Shown: piece by piece, positions 1-7,116 of the stretch
How positions within the stretch are numbered: the stretch's first letter is position 1
How the letters are laid out: every line of letters begins with the position of its first letter
IMG/VR virus record: IMGVR_UViG_2651869696_000014
DNA from: a virus
Taxonomy: Duplodnaviria; Heunggongvirae; Uroviricota; Caudoviricetes
Strand: one strand, 5' to 3'
Length of the DNA stretch: 7,116 nt
Translations under genes and position numbers: made by a program
Notes under the pieces: generated by a model
Told to the model about the DNA's origin: nothing
The model's database searches: none
What the model saw: only the letters and a program-made list of their open reading frames with translations

Positions 1-1074
1 TCATTTGTCGATTTCAATTTTGTCCCATTCCCGTCCACGGCTGTCCCTATACCGCGCCGCCATTAAATCTGATTTATGCCCGAGAAGACGTTGAGCAAAC
101 TTATCGCCAATCTGGTTCCGGTATAGCCTCGCTGACAGGCTACGCAGTTCATGGAATGTTGGCGGGTTTCCATCAAATGAGAGTCCAGATGCATTTCTCG
201 CCTTTGTAAAATACTTTGATACTGTTTTCGGGGAAAGCGGATCGTGATGCTTTGATGCGATTATAGTTTCACTGCTGCTGGCCTCCCTGCATTTCTGTAG
301 TGTATCAGCCAATGAGATATTGAGCGCGTCAATCGTTAGCGTTAGCGGAATGGCGAGTTTAGCCCCTGTTTTACTCTGTTCAATGTGAAGATGGTTGTCG
401 TTTATGTCTGACCATTTCATTCTGCACAAATCGCCGACTCTCTGCCCTGTAACGACGGCCAAATCCATCGCCAGCCTTAGCCAGATAGGGAGAGGTTCGG
501 CTGCATGGTAAATCTCGACATACTCATTAGCTGTCAGCCTTGAGCGCCTTACTTCTGACTTTGCTGTACGGGTTGCTGTTACCGGATTCGTTGCAACATG
601 CCCCTCGGCTATTGCTTCACGAAAAACGTCAACAAGGGTTGACCTGATTAATTTTGCGGAAGCTGCTTTACCTTCTGCCACGTAGGTGTTTAGCATTGCT
701 GCCACTTCTTTCGTTGATATGTCAGTGAGCGGTTTGTCCGGCAATTTTCTTCGGATTGCCCTGATTTTGCTGGCGTAGTCGAGTAGAGTTTTCGGCCTGA
801 TCCCTCTTTCGGTGAGGATTCTTTCATATCGGTCAAGCCACACATGAAGAGTGATTGCGTCACCGCCTTTAATTCTGTCTATCAGTGATTTGCGTCCGCT
901 GTCTGAGAGTAACTCAATATTGGCCTGTATTGCTTCAGTGATTGCTATCCTCCTGTCTCGGCCTAATCCAAACTCTTTACCCGTCCTTGGGTCCCTGTAG
1001 CAGTAATATCCATTGTTTCTTATATAAAGGTTAGGGGGTAAATCCCGGCGCTCATGACTTCGCCTTCTTCCCAT
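1..1074 (-). CDS. int: Tyrosine site-specific integrase, lambda Int family (357 aa), mosaic relative to lambda Int
   Basis: Full-length ORF. The N-terminal ~55 aa (MGRRRSHERRDLPPNLYIRNNGYYCYRDPRTGKEFGLGRDRRIAITEAIQANIEL) and C-terminal region match lambda Int as I recall it; the central region diverges. Catalytic residues sit in conserved contexts (TGQRVGDL, EQSKTGAKLAIP, HELRSL, LLGHKSD, ARYRD). Overlaps upstream xis by 23 nt, as in lambda. Confidence 0.95.
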   Translation of the reverse strand: MGRRRSHERRDLPPNLYIRNNGYYCYRDPRTGKEFGLGRDRRIAITEAIQANIELLSDSGRKSLIDRIKGGDAITLHVWLDRYERILTERGIRPKTLLDYASKIRAIRRKLPDKPLTDISTKEVAAMLNTYVAEGKAASAKLIRSTLVDVFREAIAEGHVATNPVTATRTAKSEVRRSRLTANEYVEIYHAAEPLPIWLRLAMDLAVVTGQRVGDLCRMKWSDINDNHLHIEQSKTGAKLAIPLTLTIDALNISLADTLQKCREASSSETIIASKHHDPLSPKTVSKYFTKARNASGLSFDGNPPTFHELRSLSARLYRNQIGDKFAQRLLGHKSDLMAARYRDSRGREWDKIEIDK

Positions 1075-1270
1075 TTCTGATCCTCTTCAAAAGGCTACCT
1101 GTTACTGGTCGATTTAAGTCAACCTTTACCGCTGATTCGTGGAACAGATACTCTCTGCCATCCTTAACCGGAGGAGGGAATATCCTGCATTCGCGCACCC
1201 ATCGACGAACTGTTTCAAGGCTTCTTGGGCGTCGCTGGCGAGCGTTCCACTCCTGAAGTGTCAAGTACAT
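1052..1270 (-). CDS. xis: Excisionase Xis (72 aa), near-identical to lambda Xis
   Basis: Translation MYLTLQEWNARQRRPRSLETVRRWVRECRIFPPPVKDGREYLFHESAVKVDLNRPVTG...KRIRNGKKAKS matches lambda Xis from memory. GGAG lies about 9 nt upstream of the ATG. Overlaps the int start. Confidence 0.92.
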   Translation of the reverse strand: MYLTLQEWNARQRRPRSLETVRRWVRECRIFPPPVKDGREYLFHESAVKVDLNRPVTGSLLKRIRNGKKAKS

Positions 1271-1282
1271 CGCAAAGTCTCC

Positions 1283-1296
1283 GCAATTACACGCAA
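1283..1296 (-). promoter_or_regulatory. Putative CII-activator box TTGC-N6-TTGC of a pI-like int promoter
   Basis: Minus-strand sequence TTGCGTGTAATTGC sits 13-26 nt upstream of the xis ATG. A -10-like TGTACT (4/6 to TATAAT) overlaps the xis start codon at the expected spacing, so a transcript would start inside xis and encode Int without Xis, as established for lambda pI. Confidence 0.45.
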
Positions 1297-1318
1297 GAAA
1301 AAACCGCCATCAGGCGGC
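1297..1318 (-). terminator. Rho-independent terminator-like hairpin (minus strand): stem CCGCC/GGCGG, loop UGAU, followed by UUUUUUCUU
   Basis: Read directly on the reverse complement: GCCGCCTGATGGCGGTTTTTTCTT. The TGA stop codon of the 55-aa ORF lies in the loop. Confidence 0.55.
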
Positions 1319-1477
1319 TTGGTGTTCTTTCAGTTCTTCAATTCGAATATTGGTTACGTCTGCATGTGCTATCTGCGCCCACAGCATCCAGTGGTCATAG
1401 CAGTCGCTGATGTTCTCGGCTTCGATAACTCTGTTGAATGGTTCTCCATTCCATTCACCTGTAACTCGGAAGTGCAT
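1310..1477 (-). CDS. Hypothetical small protein (55 aa), in the position of lambda orf55
   Basis: Not in the supplied ORF track (below its size cutoff). Hand translation of the minus strand from the ATG at 1477 gives MHFRVTGEWNGEPFNRVIEAENISDCYDHWMLWAQIAHADVTNIRIEELKEHQAA, ending at TGA inside the terminator hairpin. Lambda has a 55-aa ORF between xis and ea8.5. No clear Shine-Dalgarno. Confidence 0.45.
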   Translation of the reverse strand: MHFRVTGEWNGEPFNRVIEAENISDCYDHWMLWAQIAHADVTNIRIEELKEHQAA

Positions 1478-1487
1478 TTATCATCGC

Positions 1488-1515
1488 CATAAAACAAAAC
1501 TCGCCGTAGCGAGTT
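1488..1515 (-). terminator. Rho-independent terminator-like hairpin (minus strand): stem CUCGC/GCGAG, loop UACG, followed by UUUUGUUUUAU
   Basis: Read on the reverse complement, about 50 nt downstream of the Ea8.5-like stop. Weak point: the orf55-like ATG is only about 11 nt beyond the U tract. Confidence 0.4.
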
Positions 1516-1565
1516 CAGATAAAAGAAATCCCCGCGAGTGCGAGGATAGTTACTTGTTCATATTA

Positions 1566-1847
1566 TTAATCGTCAATGTATTTTGAGCATTGTGGGCAAT
1601 CATCGATCCCACAATACGATTCATATGCATCCTTTATTGCGTCGCGGGCTTCAGTAAGAGTATTGAATAAGTTGCAGCTATTATCTTTTTGATATAGGTT
1701 AGTTCCTAATTTATAAGCAGAAGAAGCATCATTTCCGCTGTCTAAAATTACATCGTTATGGATTCTGCACCTTGCAAGAACTCCTGATCCCATAAGGGTC
1801 TGCATAGCCCATTGCTCTTGATCTTCACACAAATCATGAATGCTCAT
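1566..1847 (-). CDS. Cys-rich small protein, lambda Ea8.5-like (putative zinc-binding); 93 aa from the preferred start
   Basis: The track ORF is 1566..1865 (99 aa). I prefer the internal ATG at 1847 (MSIHDLCED...) because GAGAGG lies 7 nt upstream, while the 1865 ATG has no SD. Size and position match lambda ea8.5. Cys/His pattern (C-x4-C-x2-C near the C-terminus plus upstream Cys/His) suggests metal binding. Visibly AT-rich compared with neighbours. Confidence 0.55.
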   Translation of the reverse strand: MSIHDLCEDQEQWAMQTLMGSGVLARCRIHNDVILDSGNDASSAYKLGTNLYQKDNSCNLFNTLTEARDAIKDAYESYCGIDDCPQCSKYIDD

Positions 1848-1961
1848 TTCAACACCTCTCTTCACGTTTCACACACGTTAAGATTAACAGTGTTTTTACA
1901 TGCTTTGGAAGATTTATTTTATAAAAACTCTTTTAATACAAATAGATATAATAGTTCACTA

Positions 1962-2759
1962 TTATAGCTCCTTTAATCGAGGCGGTTCTGGTAGAGGCAT
2001 CCAGTGGGTTACACCGCCAATTGGCTCATCGTCGTCGTACTCCAATGCGGTTATATAGAACCCGTCACGACGAGAATAAGAAATCCCGGACATTACAATG
2101 CCATCCGAAACAACAATAATGTCACCCGTTTCTTTCGGCATTCGCTCACTACAGCTTATCCAACCATCCGGAGTCACCGGAAGCGAGAACGGCAGCACAT
2201 CTCTGTGAACAAGTTTTTGCTGTGACAGGTTATCCAGAACTTTCTGTACTGCTGCATCACCGAATACACCAAGCGCATCTGCCATAACTCCTACAACCTG
2301 ATAAGCCTCAGCGCATACCGTGGATAAACCATCCGGAATTACCGGAGAGTTGCCGGGTTCTTTAATGTGCAAGCGAGGCTCACCATCTTTTGGTTCAGGC
2401 CACTGGCGCTCCATGTTGATCTTCAATTTATCTTCCATAGCAGCGGTAATTTCAGCATCGCTGATGCCAGCACGGCGCTGTGCATCCCACAACAGGAAAT
2501 GCATATCAGCCCACTCGCTGAGATCGTCTGGTTCGGCTGCGGCTTCCAGAGCCTCTTTTGAGAGGTGTTTCAGTGGACCAATGGGGCCAACGCAGCCAAA
2601 TGTGGAGTCAGACCATTTGGCATGCTCGTGGCGAATCAGTTCGCGTTCCAGTGATGCCAGTGCAATTCGTGCCAGTTCCATTTGTTCGCCACGAGTAAGC
2701 CCGTTTTCAAGCGGATTTTTAATGAACAATTCAATACGTTCTTTGGTAATAGTGGTCAT
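1962..2759 (-). CDS. Phage protein with N-terminal DUF550-type (putative MazG-like dATP/dGTP pyrophosphohydrolase) domain and C-terminal DUF551 domain (265 aa)
   Basis: Complete ORF with AAGGA 7 nt upstream of the ATG. The C-terminus ...GGVTHWMPLPEPP matches what I recall as the DUF551 signature. The N-terminal Glu-rich helices (GEQMELARIALASLERE ... EWADMHFLLWD) are compatible with an all-alpha NTP-pyrophosphohydrolase fold. The domain call is from memory, not from a search. Confidence 0.7.
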   Translation of the reverse strand: MTTITKERIELFIKNPLENGLTRGEQMELARIALASLERELIRHEHAKWSDSTFGCVGPIGPLKHLSKEALEAAAEPDDLSEWADMHFLLWDAQRRAGISDAEITAAMEDKLKINMERQWPEPKDGEPRLHIKEPGNSPVIPDGLSTVCAEAYQVVGVMADALGVFGDAAVQKVLDNLSQQKLVHRDVLPFSLPVTPDGWISCSERMPKETGDIIVVSDGIVMSGISYSRRDGFYITALEYDDDEPIGGVTHWMPLPEPPRLKEL

Positions 2760-2769
2760 TTGTTAGTCC

Positions 2770-3525
2770 TTAAAGTGCTAGTTGCAATTGCATTTCAAAG
2801 CGGTCGCGTTGTTCACAATACGCAAGAGAACCAGGGCTATTGTGTGCCTCAATCCGTTCTACCATTAATGCTGCGCGTGTCTCTTTACTTGCAGGTGCAT
2901 AAGCCCCAGACCAGGCTTTATCAATACCGATGTTTCGAGCGACGTTCGTACTATCTGCGCTGGCTAAGGGTAATTTTGTGAATATCAGCGGATTTAACAT
3001 GCGCAATCCATGTAGTTTCGTAACCGGCTGACCATGCCCATCAACAATGTGACGAATCAGGTCTTTCATTCTGGCTACCGCAAGAGTTGGGCGCTTTACG
3101 TCATAGTCGCCACAACTACCGATAGCCACTCGCGGAAACTCATTGCACAAATGAATAAATCGCTCGTCACTTTCATTCATGTGCCACACTGGAACGCCAG
3201 CTAGTTTTCCGTGAGGCCACTCATTCAGAAGCGCATCATTTTCCTCCTCTCCGCCATCAATAACATCCGGGATAATGGCAAAATCGAATCCTGGGTGATT
3301 CTTCCAGCGAGCAACAAACTCGTAGTAAACGCTCCAGTCGATTTTGTTTTTGCCAGCTGCTTTCCAGGCGGTGAATGCACCGTTGTCCAGCGCGAACGAC
3401 TGACAGTATTCAGCCGCGAGATTGATCTGGCCTGAATGCGCAAAACTGATAAACGCATGTCGCCCTTTCCATGCTCTCATTGCGCACGTATCAGGAGTAA
3501 TAGGCCCACCGTGGTAGTGAATCAT
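2770..3525 (-). CDS. TGT-superfamily protein, putative DpdA-like DNA 7-deazaguanine transglycosylase (about 251 aa)
   Basis: The track ORF is 2770..3567 (265 aa). I prefer the ATG at 3525 (MIHYHGGP...): it has AAGGAG 6 nt upstream and leaves a 1-nt gap after the upstream stop instead of a 41-nt overlap. Motifs resemble bacterial Tgt as I recall it: ALDNGAF (cf. DSGGFQ), FAIIPDVIDGG (cf. IFDEC), VAIGS (cf. AVGG), ADSTNVARN (cf. MPTRNARN), in the same order. No C-terminal zinc subdomain. Confidence 0.6.
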   Translation of the reverse strand: MIHYHGGPITPDTCAMRAWKGRHAFISFAHSGQINLAAEYCQSFALDNGAFTAWKAAGKNKIDWSVYYEFVARWKNHPGFDFAIIPDVIDGGEEENDALLNEWPHGKLAGVPVWHMNESDERFIHLCNEFPRVAIGSCGDYDVKRPTLAVARMKDLIRHIVDGHGQPVTKLHGLRMLNPLIFTKLPLASADSTNVARNIGIDKAWSGAYAPASKETRAALMVERIEAHNSPGSLAYCEQRDRFEMQLQLAL

Positions 3526-3526
3526 C

Positions 3527-3934
3527 TCACTCTCCTTTGATGCGAATGCCAGTAGCGCGGATTGCATCGATGACTTCAGAAACTTTGTATGCCATTACCG
3601 TTTGGTAATCATCGTGAAAATCTGTTCGATGAAGCATGCTGCTACGTTCCGGGAGCAGTATTTCCCGCGCTTCCAGTTCTGCAATGCGCTTTTTTGCTGC
3701 TTCCAGTTCATCCAGTAATTCCAGCACGGTAGCCGGATTAGCCTTGGCAACAAAATCCCGGACTGGCTTACAATCAATCTCCGCAATGGGTTGATACGAT
3801 GTGTAGCCATGCTGTCTTGTATAACTACCGTGACGAATAACGAAAAAATCACCATTTATTTTTTTAGCCTGCCACTTATCTTCACCGGCTTTCTCTGCCG
3901 CTTCACGCAGTGCCTGAGAGTTAATTTCGCTCAC
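3527..3934 (-). CDS. Ead/Ea22-like protein (135 aa)
   Basis: N-terminal ...QALREAAEKA... and the ANPATVLELLDELEAAKKRIAELEA coiled-coil segment resemble the Ead/Ea22-like family of lambdoid prophages (from memory). It occupies the lambda ea22 position. Its start overlaps the upstream stop (ATGA). Confidence 0.6.
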   Translation of the reverse strand: MSEINSQALREAAEKAGEDKWQAKKINGDFFVIRHGSYTRQHGYTSYQPIAEIDCKPVRDFVAKANPATVLELLDELEAAKKRIAELEAREILLPERSSMLHRTDFHDDYQTVMAYKVSEVIDAIRATGIRIKGE

Positions 3935-4152
3935 TTCGAACCTCTCTGTTTACTGATAAGCTCCAGATCCTCCTGGCAACTTGCACAAGTCCGACAACCC
4001 TGAACGACCAGGCGTCTTCGTTCATCTATGGGATCGCCACACTCACAACAATGAGTGGCGGATATAGTCTGGTAGTTCAGACGACGCATTTTTATTGCTG
4101 TATTGCGCTGTAATTCTTCAATTTCTGATGCTGAATCAATGATGTCCGCCAT
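3931..4152 (-). CDS. DksA/TraR-family C4-type zinc-finger protein (73 aa), lambda orf73-like
   Basis: CxxC...CxxC motif (CCECGDPI ... CRTCASCQ) in a 73-aa protein; same size and position as the lambda TraR homolog orf73. Confidence 0.75.
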   Translation of the reverse strand: MADIIDSASEIEELQRNTAIKMRRLNYQTISATHCCECGDPIDERRRLVVQGCRTCASCQEDLELISKQRGSK

Positions 4153-4206
4153 CTTTCATTAATCCCTGAATTGTTGGTTAATACGCTTGAGGGTAAATGC
4201 GAATAA

Positions 4207-4228
4207 TAAAAAAGGAGCCTGTAGCTCC
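4207..4228 (-). terminator. Rho-independent terminator-like hairpin (minus strand): stem GGAGC/GCUCC, loop UACAG, followed by UUUUUUAUUAUU
   Basis: Read on the reverse complement (GGAGCTACAGGCTCCTTTTTTATTATT), 23 nt downstream of the stop of ORF 4251..4532 and upstream of the TraR-like gene. Confidence 0.5.
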
Positions 4229-4250
4229 CTGATGATTTTGCTTTTCATGT

Positions 4251-4532
4251 TCACCGTTCCTTAAAAACGCCGTTTAACATGCCGATTGCCAGGCTTAAAT
4301 GAGTCGGTGTGAATCCCATCAGCGTTACCGTTTCGCGGTGCTTCTTCAGTACGCTACGGCAAATGTCATCGACGTTTTTATCCGGAAACTGCTGTCTGGC
4401 TTTTTTGATTTCAGAATTAGCCTGACGGGCAATGCTGCGAAGGGCGTTTTCCTGCTGAGGTGTCACTGAACAAGCCCCATGTCGGCAAGCATAAGCACAC
4501 AGAATATGAAGCCCGCTGCCAGAAAAATGCAT
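4251..4532 (-). CDS. Hypothetical protein (93 aa) in the lambda orf60a position
   Basis: ORF in the track, in series with its neighbours (10-nt gap after the upstream stop). No recognisable SD and I do not recognise the family. The true start may differ. Confidence 0.45.
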   Translation of the reverse strand: MHFSGSGLHILCAYACRHGACSVTPQQENALRSIARQANSEIKKARQQFPDKNVDDICRSVLKKHRETVTLMGFTPTHLSLAIGMLNGVFKER

Positions 4533-4542
4533 TCAGTGGTTG

Positions 4543-4734
4543 TCATACCTGGTCTCTTTCATCTGCTTCTGCTTTCGCCACCATCATTTCCAGCTTTTGT
4601 GAAAGGGATGTGGCTAACGTATGAAATTCTTCGTCTGTTTCTACTGGTATTGGCACAAACCTGACTCCAATTTGAGCAAGGCTATGTGCCATCTCAATAC
4701 TCGTTCTTAACTCAACAGGAGATGCTTTGTGCAT
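4543..4734 (-). CDS. Small protein (63 aa), lambda orf63-like by size and position
   Basis: 63-aa ORF exactly where lambda orf63 lies between orf61 and orf60a. Identity is inferred from synteny and size, not sequence recall. Confidence 0.5.
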   Translation of the reverse strand: MHKASPVELRTSIEMAHSLAQIGVRFVPIPVETDEEFHTLATSLSQKLEMMVAKAEADERDQV

Positions 4735-4895
4735 ACCGCCTCCCGTTTATTATTTATCTTCTCAGCCAGCCGCTGTGCTTTCAGTGGATTTCTGATAACA
4801 GAAAGGCCGGGAAATACCCAGCCTCGCTTTGTAACGGAGTAGACGAAAGTGATCGCGCCTACCCGGATATTATCGTGAGGATGCGTCATCGCCAT
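4707..4895 (-). CDS. Small protein (62 aa), lambda orf61-like by size and position
   Basis: ORF immediately upstream of exo, overlapping the exo stop by 10 nt and overlapping the orf63-like start by 28 nt. Synteny with lambda orf61. Confidence 0.45.
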
Positions 4896-5566
4896 TGCTC
4901 CCCAAATACAAAACCAATTTCAGCCAGTGCCTCGTCCATTTTTTCGATGAACTCCGGCACCATCTCGTCAAAACTCGCCATGTACTTTTCATCCCGCTCA
5001 ACCACGACATAATGCAGTCCTTCACGCTTCATACGCGGGTCATAGTTGGCAAAGTACCAGGCATCTTTTCGTGTCACCCACATGCTGTACTGCACCTGGG
5101 CCATGTAAGCCGATTTTATGGCCTCGAAACCACCGAGCCGGAACTTCATGAAATCCCGGGAGGTAAACGGGCATTTCAGCTCAAGACCATTGCCGTCACT
5201 GCATAAACCATCGGGAGAGCAGGCGGTGCGCATACTTTCGTCGCGATAGATGATCGGGGATTCAGTAACATTCACGCCGGAAGTAAACTCAAACAGGGCT
5301 CTGGCGTCGTTCTCGTACTGTTTTCCCCAGGCCAGTGCTTTAGCGTTAACTTCCGGAGCCACACCGGTGCAAACCTCGGCAAGCAGGGTGTGGAAGTAGG
5401 ACATTTTCATGTCAGGCCATTTCTTTCCGGAGCGGGGTTTTGCTATCACGTTGTGAACTTCTGAAGCGGTGATGACGCCGAGCCGTAATTTGTGCCATGC
5501 ATCATCCCCCTGTTCGACAGCTCTCACGTCGATCCCGGTACGCTGCAGGATAATGTCCGGTGTCAT
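4886..5566 (-). CDS. exo: Lambda exonuclease (Red alpha, 5'-3' dsDNA exonuclease), 226 aa
   Basis: Translation [40 protein letters not shown]...GFVFGEQWR is essentially identical to lambda Exo as I recall it. ATGA overlap with the bet stop. Confidence 0.96.
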
Positions 5567-6348
5567 GCTGCCACCTTCTGTTCTGCGGCTTTCTGTTTCA
5601 GGAATCCAAGAGCTTTTACTGCTTCGGCCTGTGTCAGTTCTGACGATGCACGAATGTCGCGGCGAAATATCTGGGAACAGAGCGGCAATAAGTCGTCATC
5701 CCATGTTTTGTCCAGGGCAATCAGCAGAGTGTTAATCTCCTGCATGGTTTCATCGTTAACCGGAGTGATGTCGCGTTCCGGCTGACGTTCTGCAGTGTAT
5801 GCGGTATTTTCGACAATGCGCTCGGCTTCATCCTTGTCATAGATACCCGCAAATCCGAAGGCCAGACGGGCACACTGAATCATGGCTTTATGCCGTAACA
5901 TCCGTTTGGGATGCGACTGCCACGGCCCCGTAATTTCTCTGCCTTCGCGGGTTTTGAATGGTTCGCGACGGCATTCATCCATCCACTCGGTAACGCAGAT
6001 CGGATGATTACGGTCCTTGCGGTAAATCCGGCATGTACAGGATTCATTGTCCTGCTCAAAGTCCATGCCATCAAACTGCTGGTTTTCATTGATGATGCGG
6101 GACCAGCCATCAACGCCCACCACCGGAACGATGCCATTCTGCTTATCAGGAAAGGCGTAAATTTCTTTCGTCCACGGATTAAGGCCGTACTGGTTGGCAA
6201 CGATCAGTAATGCGATGAACTGCGCATCGCTGGCATCACCTTTAAATGCCGTCTGGCGAAGAGTGGTGATCAGTTCCTGTGGGTCGACAGAATCCATGCC
6301 GACACGTTCAGCCAGCTTCCCAGCCAGCGTTGCGAGTGCTGTACTCAT
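5563..6348 (-). CDS. bet: Red beta single-strand annealing protein (Bet), 261 aa
   Basis: Translation [66 protein letters not shown]... matches lambda Bet. Confidence 0.96.
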
Positions 6349-6353
6349 CCGTT

Positions 6354-6650
6354 TTATACCTCTGAATCAATATCAACCTGGTGGTGAGCAATGGTTTCAA
6401 CCATGTACCGGATGTGTTCTGCCATGCGCTCCTGAAACTCAACATCGTCATCAAACGCACGGGTAATGGCTTTTTTGCTGGCCCCGTGGCGTTGCAAATG
6501 ACCGATGCATAGCGATTCAAACAGGTGCTGGGGCAGGCCTTTTTCCATGTCGTCTGCCAGTTCTGCCTCTTTCTCTTCACGGGCGATCTGCTGGTAGTGA
6601 CGCGCCCAGCTCTGAGCCTCAAGACGATCCTGAATGTAATAAGCGTTCAT
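6354..6650 (-). CDS. gam: Gam (GamS form, 98 aa), RecBCD inhibitor
   Basis: Translation [48 protein letters not shown]...[10 protein letters not shown] matches the short form of lambda Gam. AGGAG lies 7 nt upstream of the ATG. Confidence 0.92.
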
Positions 6651-6704
6651 GGCTGAACTCCTGAAAATGGCTGTGAAAATATCGCCCGCGAAATGCCAGG
6701 CTGA

Positions 6705-6785
6705 TTAGGAAAACAGGAAAGGGGGGTAGTGAATGCTTTTGCTTGATCTCAGTTTCTGTATTAATATCCATTTTTTATAAGCGTC
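6705..6785 (-). pseudogene. kil: Probable 3' remnant of kil, truncated at its 5' side by IS1
   Basis: Minus-strand frame open from the IS1 boundary reads ...[26 protein letters not shown] then stop at 6705-6707. In lambda, kil lies immediately upstream of and overlapping the long gam start. No start codon remains; the frame runs into the IS1 inverted repeat. Identification rests mainly on position. Confidence 0.4.
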
Positions 6786-6808
6786 GGTGATGCTGCCAAC
6801 TTACTGAT
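6786..6808 (+). repeat. IS1 left terminal inverted repeat (IRL)
   Basis: GGTGATGCTGCCAACTTACTGAT read directly in the sequence. Confidence 0.85.
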
Positions 6809-6840
6809 TTAGTGTATGATGGTGTTTTTGAGGTGCTCCA

Positions 6841-7116
6841 GTGGCTTCTGTTTCTATCAGCTGTCCCTCCTGTTCAGCTACTGACGGGGTGGTGCGTAAC
6901 GGCAAAAGCACCGCCGGACATCAGCGCTATCTCTGCTCTCACTGCCGTAAAACATGGCAACTGCAGTTCACTTACACCGCTTCTCAACCCGGTACGCACC
7001 AGAAAATCATTGATATGGCCATGAATGGCGTTGGATGCCGGGCAACTGCCCGCATTATGGGCGTTGGCCTCAACACGATTTTACGTCACTTAAAAAACTC
7101 AGGCCGCAGTCGGTAA
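6841..7116 (+). CDS. insA: IS1 InsA (91 aa), transposition repressor and N-terminal part of the InsAB' transposase
   Basis: Translation [91 protein letters not shown] matches InsA. The stop codon is the last three bases of the window. Confidence 0.96.
7099..7107 (+). promoter_or_regulatory. IS1 programmed -1 ribosomal frameshift motif (TTAAAAAAC, the A6C slippery site)
   Basis: The A6C run sits near the 3' end of insA at the known position for the InsA-to-InsAB' frameshift. The downstream insB' frame is outside the window. Confidence 0.7.

Follow-up and report, generated by a model that had tools for sequence, protein, structure and literature searches.

The closest described systems are the leftward pL operon of phage lambda, in which kil, gam, bet and exo occupy NC_001416 31348-33330, and the IS1 family of insertion sequences (IS1A/B/D-like) of E. 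coli and Shigella, whose members share a terminal repeat, an insA product with a zinc ribbon and a helix-turn-helix (HTH) domain, and an A6C motif. IS1 is bordered by a target-site duplication, a 9 bp direct repeat that is occasionally 8-14 bp long, and disruption of a prophage gene by IS1 is an already known, everyday event in E. coli genomes. Kil, the product of the first gene of the lambda segment, stops cell division through ZipA-dependent inhibition of FtsZ (PMC3961180). Its activity requires a helix-turn-helix core spanning residues 4-38; a protein of residues 1-36 still works, and removal of any single part of the core abolishes activity (PMC11762379). An IS1 copy within kil with both ends visible is present in GCA_017732175.1 (locus L027, 4082-4867), where a complete IS1 carries the 9-bp duplication AGCGTCGAC on both sides and the order cIII, kil', IS1, 'kil, gam is contiguous on either side, a proven simple insertion. 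This allele, different from the one described below, was recovered as protein P0106 (MDQTLMVIQTKFTIATFIGDEKMFREAVDA-GDAANLLI) in a search of 5.8 billion proteins.

The window, that is, the whole stretch of 7,116 nt that was analysed, comes from contig JHSV01000006.1 (179 kb) of the E. coli draft assembly GCA_001266155.1. The source contig carries the same junction between prophage and IS1 and ends 31 nt past the window, still inside IS1 and after 362 nt of the element, so that the far IS1 end, the 9-bp duplication and the remainder of the leftward operon, including the region that would contain pL, nutL and N, are out of view. The features of the window that bear on the junction are as follows.

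Positions 1 to 1074, minus strand: int, 357 aa, full length by Pfam.
Positions 1052 to 1270, minus strand: xis, 72 aa, full length by Pfam.
Positions 4886 to 5566, minus strand: exo, 226 aa, intact (YqaJ, PF09588).
Positions 5563 to 6348, minus strand: bet, 261 aa, intact (RecT, PF03837).
Positions 6354 to 6650, minus strand: gam in its GamS form, 98 aa, intact (Pfam Gam, PF06064, 2e-64 over its full length; 97% identical to lambda Gam residues 41-138).
Positions 6619 to 6771, minus strand: reading frame homologous to the lambda GamL N-terminal leader by comparison with lambda, out of frame with gamS.
Positions 6705 to 6785, minus strand: 3' remnant of kil, codons 29-54 and the stop of a 54-aa Kil allele, startless, assigned by identity to the Kil proteins of UTAK-6 and lambda.
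Positions 6777 to 6785, no strand assigned: candidate left copy of the 9-bp target-site duplication, ATAAGCGTC, read from the sequence and by analogy with the duplication of L027.
Positions 6786 to 7116, plus strand: 5' part of IS1 from the left inverted repeat to the insA stop, 331 nt in the window.
Positions 6786 to 6808, plus strand: left terminal inverted repeat of IS1, GGTGATGCTGCCAACTTACTGAT, the same end as in the complete IS1 of L027.
Positions 6841 to 7116, plus strand: insA, complete, 91 aa (Pfam PF12759 Zn_ribbon_InsA, 1e-21; PF03811 HTH_Tnp_IS1, 5e-31).
Positions 7092 to 7098, plus strand: A6C motif AAAAAAC, read in the sequence.

The edges of the window coincide with stop codons, that of int at 1 and that of insA at 7116. 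In IS1 the A6C motif, here at 7092-7098, is the programmed -1 frameshift site that produces InsAB'. The gene order and sequence of the leftward genes match lambda kil-gam-bet-exo; the window differs from lambda in that kil is split by IS1 after codon 28, that the Kil allele is the 54-aa form, and that the GamL leader is frameshifted. Compared with a full IS1, the visible part covers the first 331 nt (362 nt in the contig); insB', the right repeat and the duplication would lie beyond it.

The most probable origin of this arrangement, at roughly 0.9, is a true transposition event in which IS1 entered kil in a lambdoid, torS-adjacent prophage of E. coli GCA_001266155.1. The breakpoint was located by a similarity search with positions 6300-7116 (817 nt) as the query, in which query position 487 corresponds to window position 6786. 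IS1 copies were matched in 5288 of 5426 complete E. coli genomes, the best match reaching at least 99% identity to IS1 in 4968 E. coli records, and the IS1 portion of the source contig is 98.9% identical over 352 nt to the complete 768-bp IS1 of L027. Uninterrupted lambdoid matches, comprising 180 phage records and many E. coli prophages, all stop at query position 487. Alignments with 933W, lambda and UTAK-6 diverge directly after ...TTTTTTATAAGCGTC (...CCATTTTTTATAAGCGTC), that is, at 6785/6786. The join thus falls on the outermost nucleotide of IS1, as expected of a transposition rather than a chance join. On the lambda map the insertion point corresponds to 33246/33247, following kil codon 28; insA is directed away from gam, the distance from IS1 to the gam start at 6650 is 135 nt, and the target, as with other IS1 copies, is A/T-rich. 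The original prediction of an IS1 left repeat at 6786 followed by a plus-strand insA, with the element inserted in kil immediately upstream of gam, is therefore borne out by the sequence, the Pfam domains, the genomic IS1 matches and the position of the breakpoint.

The frame that abuts IS1 on the minus strand had been read as a kil C-terminus lacking a start codon, and alignment of the remnant confirms this. Its 26 aa are identical (26/26) to residues 29-54 of the 54-aa Kil of UTAK-6, and 18/19 residues match lambda Kil over residues 29-47. Followed upstream into the IS1 repeat, the frame reads NQ*VGSIT and has no start codon. A Pfam search with the 26-aa remnant returned no family, the remnant being too short for a PF06301 match. 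At 6726-6728 the window has TAC in place of the TAA stop of lambda kil, which yields the 54-aa allele common to the window and UTAK-6; the coordinate 6705 given by the original prediction is the stop of this longer allele. The cluster of near-identical 54-aa Kil proteins has 138 member sequences. An ATG-initiated frame at 6771-6619, which starts 14 nt from IS1, was considered as a candidate for kil and rejected, since it is the frameshifted GamL leader and the kil remnant lies in another frame.

Kil residues 1-28 are missing from the remnant, and the helix-turn-helix core (residues 4-38) with the start codon is not intact. The break after residue 28 (residue 31 counting the duplication) cuts helix 2 (aa 21-38), so that Kil should be inactive. 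From the position of the break within this experimentally required core (PMC11762379), we infer that IS1 has inactivated kil, in agreement with the earlier proposal that a toxic gene had been lost. Frameshifted Kil variants also occur in the database: P0044, P0046, P0104 and P0112 carry frameshifts, for example in the A-run after codon 32, and are either fused to the GamL-leader frame or end early. These variants suggest that small indels often inactivate kil in prophages.

Downstream of the break, gam, bet and exo are full length and in lambda order. The Pfam matches to Gam, Bet and Exo and the 97% identity of Gam to its lambda counterpart substantiate the expectation of an intact Red module. 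At about 6664 the window has one A more than lambda, which shifts the GamL leader out of frame, so that only the 98-aa GamS form can be made. The int and xis genes are the distal genes of the same leftward operon as Red. Records with the exact protein were found in 5147 blocks for Gam, 8089 for Exo and 34743 for the DUF1317 protein.

The closest relative is the torS prophage of E. coli UTAK-6, with 99.9% identity over window positions 1-6785, the differences amounting to 5 substitutions and 2 single-base indels. Both prophages adjoin torS (L025 7242-9986 in the source contig, where it is the int side that does so; L014 3162-5906 in UTAK-6). In the UTAK-6 prophage kil, cIII and ea10 are intact, and kil is annotated as a 54-aa peptide. 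The 99.9% identity of the window to a prophage with an intact kil suggests that the IS1 event was recent. Single-base insertions in UTAK-6 (window positions 3356 and 5524) frameshift exo and the reading frame of a 251-aa protein, the window copies of which are intact; these frameshifts could reflect either errors in the UTAK-6 sequence or true decay of that prophage. The 251-aa protein (2770-3525) was read on 4 contigs, 3 of which were grouped as one place (L025 and 2 similar places), and its exact sequence match identified the source contig; a 265-aa form of the same reading frame had no exact protein record with that start.

What lies beyond IS1 was approached through comparable IS1 copies and through searches for the far junction. 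IS1 is present within about 0.9 kb upstream of gam in 23 of the 5426 complete genomes, in 15 cases in the orientation of the window and in 8 in the opposite one. A rough estimate with uniform random placement, which takes ~13 IS1 copies in each 5-Mb genome, ~8000 copies of gam and an interval of 0.9 kb, gives ~20 expected occurrences. A regional IS1 hotspot, or selection, upstream of gam was rejected on this comparison of 23 observed with ~20 expected. Some 16 distinct insertions within ~0.9 kb upstream of gam were inspected, of which ~11 have non-contiguous DNA on their distal flank. Beyond IS1, the individual strains carry the following.

DAM/ANT: holin and trkG.
USMARC-51688: a type VI secretion gene together with another IS1 copy.
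ATCC 8739 and B-3008: gene fragments followed by ybhB and bioA.
X14-3: ybgA.
SC516 group (trkG site): a DUF3800 fragment followed by lysis genes.
SW07164: ISKpn26 followed by a baseplate gene.
PCN061 (argU-cusS) and AB66: cusS.
14EC033: nin genes.
ES2: a truncated N gene.
F829: ParB and terminase fragments.

The IS1-bounded remnants (among them ATCC 8739, PCN061, DAM and SC516), which occupy several chromosomal locations (bioA/ybhB, argU-cusS and trkG), resemble the window in that IS1 abuts the upstream side of an intact exo-bet-gam segment, and in that the integrase-side genes are kept in most of them, with the integrase reduced to a fragment in PCN061, AB66 and ES2. They differ from it in that unrelated DNA is visible past IS1, so that they represent deletions, and in that kil and cIII are intact in most. 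In J31, IS1 lies between contiguous early-left genes by annotation and looks like a simple insertion; STEC388 and CUPS04 are perhaps simple insertions as well. Overall, roughly 1 in 4 of the comparable cases would be of this type.

Because the comparable cases in complete genomes mostly bound deletions, an IS1-bounded deletion or rearrangement is regarded as somewhat likelier for the window than a simple insertion, with slightly better than an even chance by analogy with these genomes. In the case of a deletion, the prophage would be reduced to its int-to-gam arm.

A simple insertion would consist of the 768-bp IS1 with ATAAGCGTC as the duplication, while the kil 5' part, cIII, N and pL would be kept and the prophage would be otherwise intact; we give it a little less than an even chance. 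The L027 allele is exactly such a type. Like the window copy, it lies in Kil helix 2, 3 bp from the window site, with gam-bet-exo intact downstream; it differs in its opposite orientation (right repeat towards gam), in the visibility of both junctions and in its prophage background. That IS1 has struck twice independently at positions 3 bp apart suggests a local target preference. The contiguous early-left genes around IS1 in J31 and the recent event suggested by the kil-intact relative also speak for a simple insertion; that most comparable IS1 copies in complete genomes bound deletions speaks against it.

A simple insertion also makes definite predictions on the far side. The sequence would run from the right end of IS1 through the 9-bp repeat into the 5' part of kil (...GGAGTCATTACC-ATAAGCGTC-GACGGCCTCACG...) and on to cIII, and the IS1 right end ...AAGTTGGAGTCATTACC followed by ATAAGCGTCGACGGCCTCACG is the arrangement to be expected. 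A flexible right-junction pattern, defined as the IS1 right end, 6-14 nt and then the kil 5' part GACRGCYTCACGAAACATC, gave 0 matches in the viral, species-representative genome and metagenome collections, which counts against a simple insertion. The exact left-junction pattern likewise had 0 matches in the viral, species-representative genome and metagenome contig collections, and the exact junction was absent both from the 5426 complete E. coli genomes and from 50,697 records of phages.

At the protein level, kil codons 1-31 reading into the IS1 right end would give a 57-aa Kil(1-31)::IS1 fusion, MDQTIIAIQTKFTIATFIGDEKMFREAVDAYGNDSNLLIVFYVQIMPDDFVMQLHRF. This fusion was not found in 5.8 billion proteins, a collection that includes the gene calls of GCA_001266155.1. 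Its absence is weak evidence against a simple insertion; the fusion may not have been called as a gene, or too little IS1 may be present on the neighbouring contig. The same search matched thousands of short, unrelated host-gene fragments fused to an IS1 right-end read-through tail, GNDSNLLIVFYVQIMPDDFVMQLHRF. Such gene::IS1 tail fusions are an annotation by-product that could serve for cataloguing IS1 insertion sites. In the literature, no paper on assembly GCA_001266155.1 was found, and full-text searches on kil, IS1, prophage and gam returned none that was relevant.

Under either the deletion or the simple insertion, IS1 would now stand between whatever lies upstream and the genes gam, bet, exo ... 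xis and int, and three routes of expression can be envisaged. If the rest of the operon is present, transcripts from pL that are antiterminated by N could pass across IS1. Adhya, Gottesman and de Crombrugghe reportedly found in 1974 that N-modified pL transcription overrides the polarity of IS insertions. With a simple insertion, N-modified transcription would cross IS1 on induction, and Red, Xis and Int would be made, perhaps in smaller amounts, without Kil toxicity. Alternatively, the downstream genes could be transcribed from the new upstream DNA, having been orphaned from pL in the event of a deletion, or a weak promoter at the junction could drive them. Separation from pL by IS1 need not, then, silence the Red genes. 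A point that the original prediction omitted is that this IS1 also precedes xis and int, so that the insertion may affect excision in addition to Red. The kil, gam, bet and exo genes are dispensable for lambda plaque formation (PMC10695390), so that a defective phage need not follow from the insertion alone. The domesticated or defective prophage proposed at the outset is no more than a possibility.

Two promoter-like sites were found at the IS1 end.

Positions 6770 to 6799, minus strand: promoter-like match across the junction, with a -35 TTGGCA in the IS1 repeat, an 18-nt spacer and a -10 AAAAAT in the kil remnant, by consensus match only.
Positions 6793 to 6820, plus strand: promoter-like site directed inward, within the left repeat and ahead of insA, by consensus match.

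The junction match agrees with the consensus at 9/12 positions with its 18-nt spacer, and the IS1 repeat has been reported to carry an outward -35 box able to form hybrid promoters (PMC8764528). Together with the intact Red genes, this would fit a domesticated Red cassette retained by the host, in which a hybrid IS1/kil promoter drives repressor-independent, Kil-free expression of gam-bet-exo. Such a cassette is considered very improbable, since promoter matches of this kind are as frequent as chance (2 found versus 0.9 +/- 0.9 expected), the count of IS1 copies near gam is of the order expected at random, and nothing indicates selection. The bolder proposal, in which constitutive Kil-free Gam-Bet-Exo would form a natural 'recombineering' module under selection and the second hit 3 bp away would reflect selection or a target hotspot in kil, is if anything more doubtful still. 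Least credible of all is an assembly artefact in which a chimeric contig end joins the prophage to a collapsed IS1 repeat: the contig does terminate inside IS1, as is typical of short-read assemblies at repeats, but the join coincides with the outermost base of the IS1 inverted repeat, 2 further places were grouped as similar with the same neighbouring genes, the contig is reported for 2 samples, and IS1 can evidently use this site as a target, since it has inserted independently 3 bp away.

The finding, an IS1 transposition into kil, has little significance beyond annotation. In complete E. coli genomes, IS1 beside gam usually borders a deletion that has left an int-to-gam remnant behind, and where a contig ends in IS1 near gam, continuation into the rest of a prophage should not be assumed. 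For users of the strain, prophage induction, excision and Red activity may be altered by an IS1 that stands ahead of Red, xis and int. For the biology of the prophage, the case shows a toxic kil being lost while the neighbouring recombination genes stay intact, a small step in prophage decay or taming.
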